NCBI GenBank assembly: GCA_951406725.2
Contig: OX597823.1
Location: forward strand, 51,894,001 to 51,958,000
From: Octopus vulgaris
Lineage: Eukaryota
Direction of reading: 5' to 3'
Length of the DNA: 64,000 bases
The notes beneath the pieces were generated by a model. It saw nothing but the letters and a program-made list of their open reading frames with translations, searched no databases and was not told the DNA's origin. A program made the translations under genes and the position numbers. Position 1 is the stretch's first letter; each line of letters begins with the position of its first letter. Below are positions 37,530 through 64,000 of the stretch, piece by piece.

Positions 37530-39050
37530 ATCTTGCTGTATTTCAGGATAGTCATTTTTTTTGCCAAATAAATACACACACTGTACATACTTCCCTTCAC
37601 TTGTTTATTACTGTTCTTATTCTATTATTCTAACTCATGTCTATTGTCTAGAAATCTTTCGTCTCACATCTGTGACCTCTTCAGCGACACTTTTTATTTT
37701 TGTGTGTTCTTGCTCCACTTACTCTGTTCTGTTCTTCTAAGATGTGTATCCTTATGTGTGTGTGTGTATGTGTTTGTATATGTGTGTGTGTCATAGTTTT
37801 AGCAGCAGTGTGGCCTTTTCCTCAGCCCCATCCTTTCCCCCATTGTGCTGCTGCTGTCCTAAGACCTGAAAAAAAAATGGTACAGTTCCTGTATTCCTCT
37901 GTGTATGTGTTCGTCCATGGTGTTGCCATTGCGGTAGTTGTTGTTGTTGTTATTGCCATCTTAAGCACAGCCGCTGCTTCTGACCATGTTAGTTGTGTTA
38001 TTGACATTGTGATGGCCATCCATGAAGTTTCATGTGTGTGCGTTTGTGTGTGTTCACGGATTCACTTTGTATGTATCAATGCCTTTTATATAGTTTTATT
38101 TATTTATTTATCTATCGCTGTCTTACATTTATCACAGGTATGTAACAGATATATTTATATATTTATTTATTTACTTTTTTTATACATCTCTATTCCTCAT
38201 AAGTATCACAGGTAAGTGCATATATGTCTATTGTATATCACCCTGTATGTTTCAGTGTATTATTTACGTTTTTGTTTACCTTTTTCTTCTCTCTTCTCAT
38301 CTCTACTGTCTTTAATGATGTGGTGTGGTGGTGGAGTTACTACTCCATTCGTATTTTGTATTGAGGCTCAGTCTGTCTACTGTTATGTGTGTAGCCTCTG
38401 TAAACTGTCTAAGTGTCATGTCAGTTCTATGACTCAATAGTACTTTAACCTCTTTGCTATTAATCGAGCCTCCATGTTCTGTCTGGGCATATTGGTAGAG
38501 TACTGATGAGCTTTTCCCTTCTTTGAGATCTCGCCAATCTTCACCTATAGGCTCTCCTATGCTGCACACAGTGGCACTGCCAATGATGGCAATAACAAAA
38601 ACAACAACTACCATGATGGTAAGACTGTGGGCAAACACACATATACAGAGGAATACCAGAACTGAACCATATTTTTATTCAGGTCGTAGGACAGCAGCAG
38701 CACAATGGAGTGAGAGGATGGGACTGAGGGGAAGGCCACACATACACACACACACACAGACAAGGACACAAATGCATGCACACATAAGGATACATATCTT
38801 AGAAGAACAAAATGGAGTAAGTGGAGCAAAAACACACGAAAATGAAAAGTATCACTGAAGAGGTCACAGATGTGTGATGAAAGATTCCTGGATAATGGAC
38901 GTGAGTTAAAATAATAAAAGAAGAACAGTAATAAATGAGTGAAGAAAATAATATATAGTGTGTGTGATTATTTGGTAAAACGAAAAAAAATGACCATCCC
39001 CCAAATACAACATCTGTTTCAACACACGATTTCACGAGGAATCAGGAATC
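37530..39050. mobile_element. Head-to-head inverted PLE-type LTR pair with HHR relics
   Basis: About 37530-37975 is the diverged reverse complement of about 38560-39050. Each arm has CTGAAGA-G-GTCACA gatg TG(T/A)GA(C/T)-GAAA-GATT (37645-37690 minus, 38850-38895 plus). (TA)n lies at the outer ends. Confidence 0.7.
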
Positions 39051-39086
39051 ATGCAAAATGAATTGATGAACGTACATATATATATA

Positions 39087-39472
39087 CTAGCAGTATCGCC
39101 CGGCGTTGCTCAGGTTTGTAAGGGAAATAACTATAAAGCATTTTTAGAGAGTTATAGCCAAAAAATAGCAAAAAAATGGAAAAAAATGATGGTAAATTTT
39201 TTTTTTGATAGTTAAAAAAGGTGGAGTTGCGTCCCATACACAGTTTGTGGTTTGTGTTCCTGATTCTCGACCCCATGTCGAATTTATCGACTTTTTTCAG
39301 AACTGGGGGAACTTTTCAAAATTTTCGCTGCGTTAGTTTTGAATTATGACATTGGGCTATGTGTGTGTCAAGTTTCATCAGAATCGGTTGAAAGCCGTGG
39401 TCAGGGTGAGGGTACAAGCGAACAGACACACAGAAACACGCACAGACAAACTGCCGTTTATATTGAGAGAGA
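39087..39472 (-). mobile_element. Non-autonomous Helitron
   Basis: Minus strand has 5' TC and a 3' subterminal hairpin CCTGAGCAACGCCGGG followed by CTAG; inserted between A and T. Confidence 0.7.
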
Positions 39473-60702: not shown

Positions 60703-61017
60703 TAATAATACTTAGAGGTATTACTTCCACTGCTACGACCATGACCACTAACAACAACAACAATACTAAAGGTGATCAAGACAAAGATAGCAGGAAAATT
60801 ATCTTATTTAGGGTTAAAAGTTCTATTGCCACCACCATCACCACTAGCAACAATAATTAAGGTGCTGACAATGATGATGATGACAATTGAAATATAAAAA
60901 TATAAAAATCTCTGACAAAGGATATTTACAACATTTCTAAAAATAACCCAACAATTGCTGCTTCGGCCAGGGTCAAGATACAGGACTCTTGACCTGTCCA
61001 ACAAAGCGTGATGCCTA

Positions 61018-61165
61018 AACCAATCAGCTCAACCAACCAATCAGCTTAAGTAATTGAGTGATACTACACACTGATTGGTCAGAATACAGTTTGCAAAACC
61101 TAGCACTCTGGAGCCTACCCAGCTGTATTTATAGCACAGAATCACTCATCTTGCTACAGTCAAAA
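61018..61165 (+). promoter_or_regulatory. Putative pLTR Pol II promoter (three CCAAT boxes and a TATA variant)
   Basis: AACCAATCAG twice, CTGATTGG, TATTTATA at 61126-61133 and an Inr-like sequence at about 61158-61162. Confidence 0.5.
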
Positions 61166-64000
61166 ATTGTGAAGCATGACTGTCAACACTACTACATGAA
61201 CCCGAAGATTGCAGAATTCAATGCATGAAAGTACTAGTTCAATCAGAATGAATATTTAACATTCTACTATTTCATTTTATTTTATTCAATTATAATATAT
61301 TATCTTATAATATATCATTATAAGATTGTAAATAAAACGTGAAAATCAGACAAGGTTGGAATTCTTTTTATTAATATATTCTTCTATACACAATCACACA
61401 CACCCATATATATATATATCTATATATATATATATATATATATGTATATATATATATACACACACATGAACACTATCATCGTGGAAATATGGCTTACTAA
61501 CATTTGCTGAGCTACTAAAATATTATGTGACGTTTTTCTGACAGTCACTAAACTAGCAAGAGACAACAAGAATATATTCCTTATGCTGCCAACTCATACA
61601 ATAATAAGCATACACACACACATGCTCAGGCATGCACACACGCATACACATGCATGCACACATACTCACATGCAAACATACTCATATGCACACACACACA
61701 TACAGACATGCCTAAGTGGAATATTAAAATATAATAATAAGCAAATATAAAATCTAAAGTATAATTTTACTGATGCATTTTTATCTCATTTGCTCAGAAA
61801 ACAAGCATTTTGATTTTCAAAATTACTATTCTAAATTATGTAATTACTCTAAATGACTTATATTTCTAACGAGTAAAAATTTCTCAGCATTTACCACAAT
61901 ACTTGTGGGCAAACAGCATTTTTAAGCTTTTCTGTCTGGAGCTAAAAAGAAGAAATTTCAGAATAAGCCACATAATCTATGATCATCTTGAAAAGGTGTC
62001 CCTCTACATATATTTTCAGTTAGCTGAACATGAAACTGTGGCCTCCAGCACGGAACATACATACAAAGATACAAACATATAGCTTTATACATTAAAACTT
62101 AGGGGTCGGGGTAAATCGATTACATTGACCCCCATTACTTGAGTGAAACTTATTTTATTGATACTGAAGGGATGAAAGACAAAGTCGACCTCAGCAGAAT
62201 TTGAACTCAGAACATAAAACCAGACGAAATGCCATTTAGCATTTTGGCCATTGTGTTAATAGTTGTGCCAGCTTGCCACAGTCCAGTGCTTATATTTGGT
62301 ATCTGAGGAGACAAGTTAAAACAACCTAATATATGTCAGTTTGTGCATAGATTATTTAATATTATCACATAAGAGTAAACAAAGAATCGTAATTAGTATA
62401 TTATATATACCTCTGCAACAAAAATCAATGTGATAGGATTGTAGACATAGTTGTCATTTAAACACATAAAATTCATCAAAATTCATTTATACTATGCTTG
62501 TGTTATAGTGACCTCAGATATCCTTCCTGGCTGAGTTAGATGTTCAGCATATATTTGGCAATCTGTATTAAAAGCATTTAACAGGGATAAGAGAATTAAA
62601 GACAGGGATAATACAAGATTTGTTAGAAGGTGGAGGCCTCACAATTAAGGCTATGATGATAAAGGCTTTTGCATTTTGGATGATGTTGAGAGTATAGCAT
62701 CAAAGATCAAATAGAGAGGAAATAGGAGATTAGTTAAAGCAAATGGAGATTTGCTTGGCAAAGGAACAGAATGCAAATGATGAGTTTGTAGGCTGTGTTC
62801 TATAGAGATATATGTTTTAGCCAGAAACAATCAACCCATGAAATCTTATCACAGATTATGTTGTTATTGTTCTTGGAAGAGTTATCGCAAAAGTGATAAA
62901 GTTTAAGAAATGTATTAACCTTATCATTAACTTGATTAAGATTTGTTTTGTTTCCTTGTTTCAACATTTCAGTTGATACATTCTCTGATTATTTTCAGAT
63001 GACATATTTTTACAATCAGATGTAAGCAAGCACACACATGCACGCACACACGCACACACACACACACACACACACACACACACACACACACACACACACA
63101 CACACACACACACACACACACACACACACACATGCACACACAACACACACACACACACACACACATGCACACACAACACACACATACACACAAACACACA
63201 CATTCACGTGCATGCCACACATATACACATGCATGCACACACATACATACACACATACAGACAGACATGCACATACACTCACATGCATACACATGCATGC
63301 ATATATATGCATGCACACTCACACATATTTACACACAAACGTGCATATATATATATATAAACCAACACAGACACACAATATGTACCTTTAAACAACAGAG
63401 GAACATATATGCAAACATACATATTCAAATAAACACGTGTACATGCCTGCACACACACACACATCTATGTATAAATCTATATATACGTATACACACATAC
63501 ATACATATATATATACATACATATATATATATATATATATATATATATATATATATACACACACATATACAAACAAAGGGTGCACAATGCAACTGTAGGC
63601 ATAAAACGTAAGGGAATAACATCACACAGCAAAAAACATCACACTCCAAGAGAAAAAGCATACAAGATGCATGAAAGAAAGACTCCTTTTAATAATGATG
63701 GACCTTATGCAGCCAGGAAAGCAATTGCATGCCCCATGACACCTGTTCTGCCCATCCACGAGCACATGACAATAATGTGCTACAAGTTGTTGGTATTGTT
63801 GGGATGCTGGCTTGCCCCAACCCACAGAAGTTTTCTAATGGAAGCAGCAGTGTTATCAATTCAAATCAGAAGGATTAGAAAGTCACAAAATGTTCACAAG
63901 GTTCTCCAGAGTCATGTAAGATATGAACAGACCTCTCTTCATCATGTAGGACAGGTATCTGATGTTTGTATGCATGCTGTATACATATGATAATGAAGAA

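Follow-up and report, generated by a model that had tools for sequence, protein, structure and literature searches.

Inverted pairs of a Penelope-like element and of retrozymes in the octopus genome nearly always combine one tail-less and one tailed arm

Inverted arrangements at the octopus locus

We analyzed 64,000 nucleotides of Octopus vulgaris DNA (assembly GCA_951406725.2, contig OX597823.1, positions 51,894,001 to 51,958,000 of the forward strand; hereafter the window, whose numbering is used throughout), which contain a Penelope-like element (PLE), two families of retrozymes and several shorter palindromes. An earlier note on this DNA had listed seven inverted arrangements and had read them as one insertion signature of elements that bear a hammerhead ribozyme (HHR), with sense strands pointing outward and 3' ends at TA repeats. 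All seven were recovered by self-comparison, all were head-to-head, and the outer ends lay in or beside (TA)n in every window pair, as had been claimed. Moreover, a terminal tail was found on one arm only in every pair. The ribozyme motifs were read by pattern; complete motifs were present in the PLE, in retrozyme-1, in the family of the pair at 52088 and, for most arms, in the 37530/45585 family. The motif at 48395 was degenerate, and that at 53886 was cut. An Rfam scan gave no hammerhead among the matches listed (150 of 206), and these were microRNA-model matches to TA repeats.

The PLE occupies positions 56541 to 61425. Its inverted arm (56541..56919, minus strand) is a copy of 61001-61379 with an HHR core at 56718, and it ends in (TA)n without a tail, at a position that we call site A. 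The direct arm (56919..61425, plus strand) spans one 4271-nt period plus 236 nt, begins at the equivalent of 61190, carries HHR cores at 56931 and 61202, and ends in (TA)n with the tail, at site B. The tail (61380..61425, plus strand) thus lies between sites A (61379) and B (61425), and a second copy is present at 57109-57154. The junction, previously placed at 56919/56920, proved to be a 1-nt overlap, 12 nt before the core and about 6 nt before helix I. Two open reading frames (ORFs) are on the plus strand: ORF1 (57176..58468), with no Pfam match, overlaps in the -1 frame with ORF2 (58375..60702), which encodes a reverse transcriptase (RT) with a C-terminal GIY-YIG endonuclease (EN; PF00078, E = 2e-6, and PF01541, E = 3e-5) and has GLKF and DKG motifs, a CX4CxxC linker and CCHH-type residues. 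The RT with its C-terminal GIY-YIG, the pseudo long terminal repeats (pLTRs) formed by a partial tandem, the inverted copy, the tail and the HHR motif are those of an EN+ PLE. Neptune elements are defined by a CX2-5CxxC linker and CCHH in the EN (PMC8557442). The octopus protein has CX4CxxC, a C-x2-C between GIY and YIG, and two His downstream; by motif, the element is of Neptune type, with the Nematis clade still compatible. There were 687 protein relatives at E ≤ 1e-20, the named ones mostly bivalve, and long copies were 99.5-99.9% alike, as in a young element. The ORF1/ORF2 overlap had 0-1 mismatch in 12/12 copies checked, indicating that the frame offset is not a lesion of the window copy, and a U-run with a weak downstream stem at 58375-58468 was near-identical in the 12 copies; the overlap is therefore a candidate programmed frameshift. 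The full-length direct arm (56919-57175) begins 34 nt past the predicted transcription start described below, and in the window copy there is no promoter upstream on the direct strand; the inverted arm carries the promoter, facing away. At 45362..45569 (plus strand) there is a further leader copy of the Neptune-type PLE, older and solo; it is 91% identical, starts at the equivalent of 61162 and finishes at an A end.

The retrozyme-1 pair consists of a minus-strand arm at 46071..47046 (2.7 copies of a 360-nt unit, with a B end and with its 5' end lying 4 nt before an HHR core) and a plus-strand arm at 47043..47885 (2.3 copies, A end). The arms share 4 nt of microhomology, and this overlap coincides with the junction previously read at 47043-47046. 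The retrozyme-2 pair (53837..54109) has a minus arm at 53837-54082, with a B end and a cut core, and a plus arm at 54083-54109 with an A end; this 27-nt partner has no ribozyme. The arrangement, noted before as 53886-54106 with its junction inside the core, is indeed joined directly behind the CUGANGA core. Retrozyme-2 has a 353-nt unit, 61% identical to that of retrozyme-1, and homologous ends. The tandem units of 360 and 353 nt, in which a core, GAAA and a palindromic helix III were recognized, agree with non-LTR retrozymes; helix I had a fold z of -4.9, the arrays contained no ORF of 150 aa, and one 24-mer of retrozyme-1 had 2022 exact matches. Both families are tandem non-coding units with a type I HHR, for which self-cleavage and a circular RNA would be expected. 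In loci L050, L045 and L262, and in the window at 47043-47402, the unit haplotype switched along retrozyme arms, with up to four types in 11 units, so that rolling copying of a single monomeric circle does not account for all arrays.

Among the shorter palindromes, a pair of putative Hydra-type PLE ends lies at 52145..52380, with a tail on the minus arm and none on the plus arm; the two arms meet in a GCTAGC palindrome, which is 13-14 nt before the cores. A later inverted duplicate of this pair and its flank lies at 52601..52896. The halves of 52088-52896 have private changes and about 55 nt of flank in common and are three substitutions apart, so that what had been taken as two separate cases is a single insertion, duplicated later, which counts once; this secondary inverted duplication of the whole pair plus flank has a TA-rich centre. 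The family, with 874 exact core matches, continues upstream, and at locus L271 it flanks a broken RT-EN frame with Hydra-like motifs. The Hydra clade is defined by a CxCX5C linker, absence of CCHH, CxxC and CxH around a conserved E/N, and a DKT-like motif (PMC8557442). By eye, we found CX5C, CxxC, CxH and a DK-I motif in the L271 frame, with the first Cys pair degenerate and at this one locus, and Pfam gave no match for three of its fragments; the parent at L271 would be a Hydra-type PLE, as judged from these Hydra-like motifs. Two further near-perfect palindromes lie beside it (L271:1757-2258 and 6951-7316). In the window, an older pair at 48394..48725 has arms 90% alike, with the A end on the left, the tail on the right and a degenerate HHR-like core, and the family's parent extends upstream with TATAAAA about 25 nt before the junction. 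The HHR-like motif at 48555-48600 has a U3/A8-type core instead of C3/G8, which is kept in most family copies. An old pair at 45585..46034 has arms 79% alike, the tail on the left arm and a junction about 50 nt before the cores, and a second pair of this family, at 37530..39086, is made up of a minus arm (37530-38568, A end) and a plus arm (38569-39086, tail). The upstream part of this family resembles, by eye, a GIY-YIG C-terminus, and in 3/18 other loci it runs almost to the far end. The short palindromes did not fit miniature inverted-repeat transposable elements (MITEs) or DNA transposons: the ends were asymmetric, with the tail on one side, the centres varied, and many copies were solo. 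The earlier proposal that such palindromes are non-coding passengers was not supported, given the PLE parent at L271 and the GIY-YIG-like fragment of the 37530/45585 family; from these parents, the short palindromes checked are PLE ends. Nor was that of one machinery, which is too strong since Neptune-type and putative Hydra-type parents are both present and at least two PLE clades would contribute. Different families were stacked in one TA tract, with short (TA)n between, in the window at 45362-47957 and in L049, L141, L223 and L252, so that an insertion appears to provide new targets for those that follow. Another decayed palindrome, absent from the earlier list, lies at 44726-45018, with arms 69% identical and ends in TA.

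Paired ends across the genome

Orientation, which the earlier note had proposed to tabulate genome-wide, was non-random in family samples composed of best matches or the first entries of C1-C6. Retrozyme-1 was head-to-head in 60/80 loci and tail-to-tail in 0, and in the set taken in order along C1, 32/41 loci were head-to-head pairs. When arms abutted with no TA between them, all fetched loci taken together, 175 were head-to-head (not fully de-duplicated), 18 direct and 0 tail-to-tail. TA was entered by 134/139 scored 3' ends, and in an independent DNA sample both retrozyme-1 ends (47165 and 47209) also ran into TA.

The 3' ends fell at two fixed sites per family, where B equals A plus a tail of about 40-70 nt: unit position 123 or 163-167 in retrozyme-1, 200 or 243-246 in retrozyme-2, and 61379 or 61425 in the PLE. 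All retrozyme-1 pairs with two canonical ends combined one of each (A+B in 55/55, p = 6e-17 against independent choice), including 30/30 in the C1 subset, picked by a motif found in both arm types. Since solo retrozyme-1 ends were 11 A and 9 B, independent choice would yield about half mixed pairs. Similarly, A+B was found in 12/12 retrozyme-2 pairs, in 35/35 classifiable Neptune-type PLE pairs among 37 junctions (tail-selected and tail-less-selected searches), and in 11/11 pairs of Hydra-type ends among 27 distinct loci (L161 and L171 corrected by eye). In tail-selected samples, one tail and one tail-less end were seen in 19/20 cases of the old 37530/45585 family, and the 48395 family gave 7 clear pairs of this kind among 30 loci, with L330 and L343 excluded as edge matches. 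Single-sequence folds at sites A and B in six families showed no common fold (z between -1.9 and +0.6).

An artefact of assembly or library fold-back could produce inverted copies, and the young pairs are indeed 99-100% identical; in addition, no other-sample contig bridged either of the two window junctions tested, a result that is uninformative for rare or polymorphic copies. However, the arms of old pairs are only 79-90% alike, arms are asymmetric at both ends, and the fixed ends recur in the independent sample, which leaves this explanation a practically negligible chance.

We also compared the two arms of each pair. The longer 5' reach belonged to the A arm in 26 pairs and to the B arm in 22, and arm lengths within a pair were uncorrelated (rho 0.13). 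Since either arm can be the longer, neither copies the other, and simple fold-back is excluded. Self-priming, in which one cDNA (complementary DNA) or an antisense RNA folds on a palindrome and copies itself into the inverted arm, has been the interpretation of such palindromes in PMC3846280, there on an antisense template; palindromes do occur at many octopus junctions (GAC-GTC, GCTAGC), and in 10/59 retrozyme-1 pairs both 5' ends lie within 9 nt. Nevertheless, a fold-back copy cannot exceed its first strand, yet A arms reached further 5' in 26/48 unequal pairs; B arms hold a tail that A arms are without; most junctions connect unrelated positions; and both arms end at sense-strand start sites. 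Self-priming is already contradicted for most pairs, and we regard it as improbable. The mismatch between arms was 0.68% within pairs and 2.4% across loci for retrozyme-1, and 0.04% and 0.17%, respectively, for 13 PLE pairs; by this measure, the arms of one pair stem from the same source. L230 and L243 were left out of the haplotype tests, and locus duplicates were removed. Unit-rank phasing in the retrozyme arrays did not separate one RNA from two.

Junction positions and the ribozyme

The arms had been described as often joined just 5' of the ribozyme. In the window, the distances from junction to core were 12 and about 200 nt in the PLE, 4 and 271 nt in the retrozyme array, 13-14 nt in the 52088 pair, about 14 nt in the 48395 pair, about 50 nt in the 45585 pair, and 884 and 286 nt in the 37530 pair. 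Only one arm is therefore near the ribozyme in the PLE and in the retrozyme array, where the other arm begins 56 nt past the predicted cut. The description suited PLE leaders but not retrozymes. In retrozyme-1, 5/118 of the 5' ends lay ≤20 nt before the core against 6.9 expected (p = 0.69), the densest 7-nt window held 7/116 ends, equal to the null median of 7 and compatible with a uniform distribution, and no pile-up was found at predicted cleavage sites. A candidate end cluster at unit 317-325 was within chance and was rejected. The 26 retrozyme-2 5' ends were scattered, none at the predicted cut.

For the Neptune-type PLE, 7/30 unselected core copies started at 61155-61166, 36-47 nt upstream of the core. 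A non-template base stood directly before 61156 in 191 copies, with 1112 exact cores genome-wide, and 67/70 copies inspected had true 5' ends at 61156; an internal T>C variant was seen in 2/70 inspected rows. The pile-up is thus a single base, 46 nt upstream of the core, 30 nt downstream of the first base of a TATA-like box (61126-61133) and below CCAAT repeats. We take the TATA and initiator (Inr) motifs of 61126..61162 (plus strand), with a pyrimidine/purine start at 61155/61156, to be a core promoter, and 61156 is the predicted transcription start. In the Hydra-type family, 14/29 arms, solos and pairs alike, began 10-16 nt before the core, adjoining an initiator-like motif, and this pile-up about 14 nt upstream of the core also marks a predicted transcription start. 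The ribozyme would then be near PLE junctions because it adjoins the likely 5' end of the RNA, and it is likely a bystander there.

If instead the ribozyme set the junction, by stalling the RT with its structure or by defining the RNA end through cleavage, junctions should follow it. Several window junctions are close to a core, 18/29 Hydra-type arms begin ≤16 nt from it, and the PLE core copies mentioned above begin 36-47 nt upstream. The PLE peak, though, falls on one base, 46 nt from the core and within a site that resembles a promoter, neither retrozyme family is enriched at the core or the cut site, arms traverse predicted cut sites, and HHR mutants insert normally in vitro (PMC11167929). 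A junction set by the ribozyme is accordingly very improbable; a role for it in placing the junction is unsupported, and proximity to the likely start site accounts for the PLE case.

The commonest PLE leader junction is a near-palindrome, GAC(A/T)GTC, whose centre base was retained by the B arm in 15 cases and by the A arm in 8, a pattern that fits annealing of two run-off cDNAs around one mismatch. The 40 A+B rows of this junction set overlap the pair count and hold duplicates, and they were not added to the totals. A common junction could also be inherited, if palindromic MITE-like masters were copied whole. Many PLE leader pairs do have one junction in common, and of the best 40 matches to the pair at 52600-52835, 40/40 cover at least 220 of its 236 nt; these matches, however, were selected for that shape. 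In the unselected Hydra-type sample the junctions varied and 16/27 loci had no near partner, the centre base can be on either side with respect to the tail (15 vs 8), arms span 86-100% identity, and hardly any retrozyme or long PLE junctions coincide, making inheritance of the junction quite improbable. In retrozyme-1, microhomology of at least 2 nt was found at 15/31 clean junctions against 16% in the null; 23/54 junctions with a gap or nearby mismatch were left out, and L230 was dropped as mis-extended.

Elsewhere in the window, we observed a direct duplication of 1.15 kb (21120-22263 and 23043-24196, 92% identical) and a minisatellite of 20/60-nt periodicity in 22 copies (34467-34904).

A putative insertion footprint and its relation to known systems

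We propose, with a probability of roughly 75%, that the pairs are a PLE insertion footprint, in which two cut ends prime at A and B and the cDNAs are joined 5' to 5'. The orientation, the TA targets, the fixed ends, the one-A-one-B rule, the same-source arms and the junction positions are the observations behind it. The PLE enzyme probably cleaves (TA)n tracts on both strands, and the two ends so formed probably serve as primers for reverse transcription at separate fixed sites of the RNA, one at A and the other, one tail further 3', at B. Each arm would be a first-strand cDNA, copied from one RNA used twice or from two RNAs of one source, and the two cDNAs would likely be joined 5' end to 5' end via short homologies. 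An asymmetric, probably dimeric, complex may enforce one A and one B. Long arms would result from priming in the 3' pLTR; priming in the copy of the sites in the 5' leader would give 225/270-nt mini-pairs, with run-off at the transcription start as the probable origin of the pile-up 5' of the ribozyme. Retrozyme multimers or circles would give arrays with scattered junctions. Since the cDNAs run through predicted cut sites, ribozyme cleavage is likely dispensable. The protein-free retrozymes carry the same footprint and are thus likely moved by the same kind of enzyme, presumably borrowed from a PLE. Of the earlier interpretation, two-ended priming with joining by microhomology is supported by the fixed RNA start sites, the 26 versus 22 longer arms, the modest microhomology enrichment, and the ability of a PLE protein to cut and extend both strands in vitro (PMC11167929), and trans-mobilization of retrozymes is supported by the shared footprint; the inversions and TA ends stand as observations, and the general junction-near-ribozyme rule, the single machinery and the passenger palindromes are not supported.

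Several points weigh against this proposal. One pair of the old 37530/45585 family has two tails (L368), one pair has two A ends, with arms from two PLE families (L449), 5/60 retrozyme-1 pairs have a non-canonical or unseen end, and the arm haplotypes of L047 are discordant. The same-source signal may come partly from age-matched subfamilies. Stretches of junction microhomology are short, averaging 1.6 vs 0.69 nt, and 10/31 clean junctions are blunt. The start site is predicted from motifs and the end pile-up; a cap-copied G at 61156 is suggestive at best, as the base was G in 7, C in 9 and A in 2 of the 18 ends without inversion. In vitro, start-site choice is alike on both strands (PMC11167929). 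In addition, the samples are partial rather than a census, and the mechanism is read from inserted copies in genome sequence.

Much of the layout is known. Units of EN+ PLEs form partial tandems with an inverted 5'-truncated copy, head-to-head being commonest, with a tail often at one end only and (TA)n as targets (Craig et al. 2021, PMC8557442; Gladyshev and Arkhipova 2013, PMC3846280), and the window agrees in its layout, one-sided tail, (TA)n and pLTR motifs. TATA/Inr-like motifs occur in PLE pLTRs (PMC3846280), promoter activity of the pLTR was shown for Drosophila Penelope (PMC2377424), minimal PLE hammerheads have been described (PMC4209133), and the origin of the tandem and inverted structures was named as an open task (PMC8557442). 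In those accounts, as far as available, the tail is optional and pairs are not counted, whereas here the one-A-one-B rule is nearly strict and arm lengths are independent; moreover, Gladyshev and Arkhipova favour antisense self-priming, and the octopus pairs argue otherwise. Target-primed reverse transcription by purified Poseidon_Ac PLE in vitro involves cutting and extension of both strands, two internal start sites bounding the tail, little primer homology, dispensable HHR cleavage and a predicted dimer (Frangieh et al. 2024, PMC11167929); that element is of another clade than the window PLE, no strand difference in start site was reported, and the sections consulted do not tie the two sites to two arms of one pair. 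Non-LTR retrozymes of Metazoa are tandem 350-360-nt type I HHR units without ORF, with a PLE as the proposed driver (Cervera and de la Pena 2020, PMC7229834; Li, Clavereau, Pollet 2026, 10.64898/2026.07.22.740005). Term searches of the main texts of these two papers brought up nothing on inverted pairs, tails or orientation; here, in contrast, the arrays carry the full PLE footprint. As in L1 twin priming (10.1101/2024.08.27.596794), both target ends would prime, and cDNAs joined by microcomplementarity give a 5' inversion; the second L1 primer, however, lands at chance internal sites with arms that barely overlap, and the octopus pairs use fixed sites with arms overlapping by up to kilobases. 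Collectively, the layout, the tail, (TA)n targeting and the two start sites are already in the literature; the strict pairing of one end of each kind, and the occurrence of this rule in retrozymes, appear new, since our searches found no statement of either, nor of run-off junctions at the start site, within a coverage that ended at subscription papers and supplements (Craig 2021 S1/S2, Frangieh Fig. S2), which may hold pair-level detail.

A wider reading, which we offer tentatively and at slightly less than even odds, is that PLEs insert via an obligately asymmetric complex of two RTs, which would assign the two target ends to two start sites on same-source RNA, the 'optional tail' being the record of that division. 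Retrozymes would imitate the signal formed by the two sites; the lengths of their tails (43-46 nt, against 46 nt in the young Neptune-type element) and their identities of 98-100% suggest this element as the driver. L449 would, on the same reading, record an RT jump: at L449:313-633 (G000:C6:8219338-8220338), a Neptune-type leader arm is head-to-head with a Hydra-type arm, with no TA between and both tail-less, and a template jump between RNAs of two PLE clades is possible in this one case.

The structure observed is thus real and of a known kind, with a sharper testable rule than the earlier note proposed. Over 100 independent pairs, in which the length of one arm does not depend on that of the other, combine one A and one B almost without exception. 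This rule is a sharp constraint on the PLE mechanism; it argues against the published antisense self-priming for these families and could be read out directly in the in vitro system now available. The driver of animal retrozymes has so far been argued from co-occurrence and pLTR similarity, and the shared footprint adds mechanistic evidence for trans-mobilization by PLEs. Finally, the abundant short palindromes of this genome would be explained as by-products of priming in the 5' leader.

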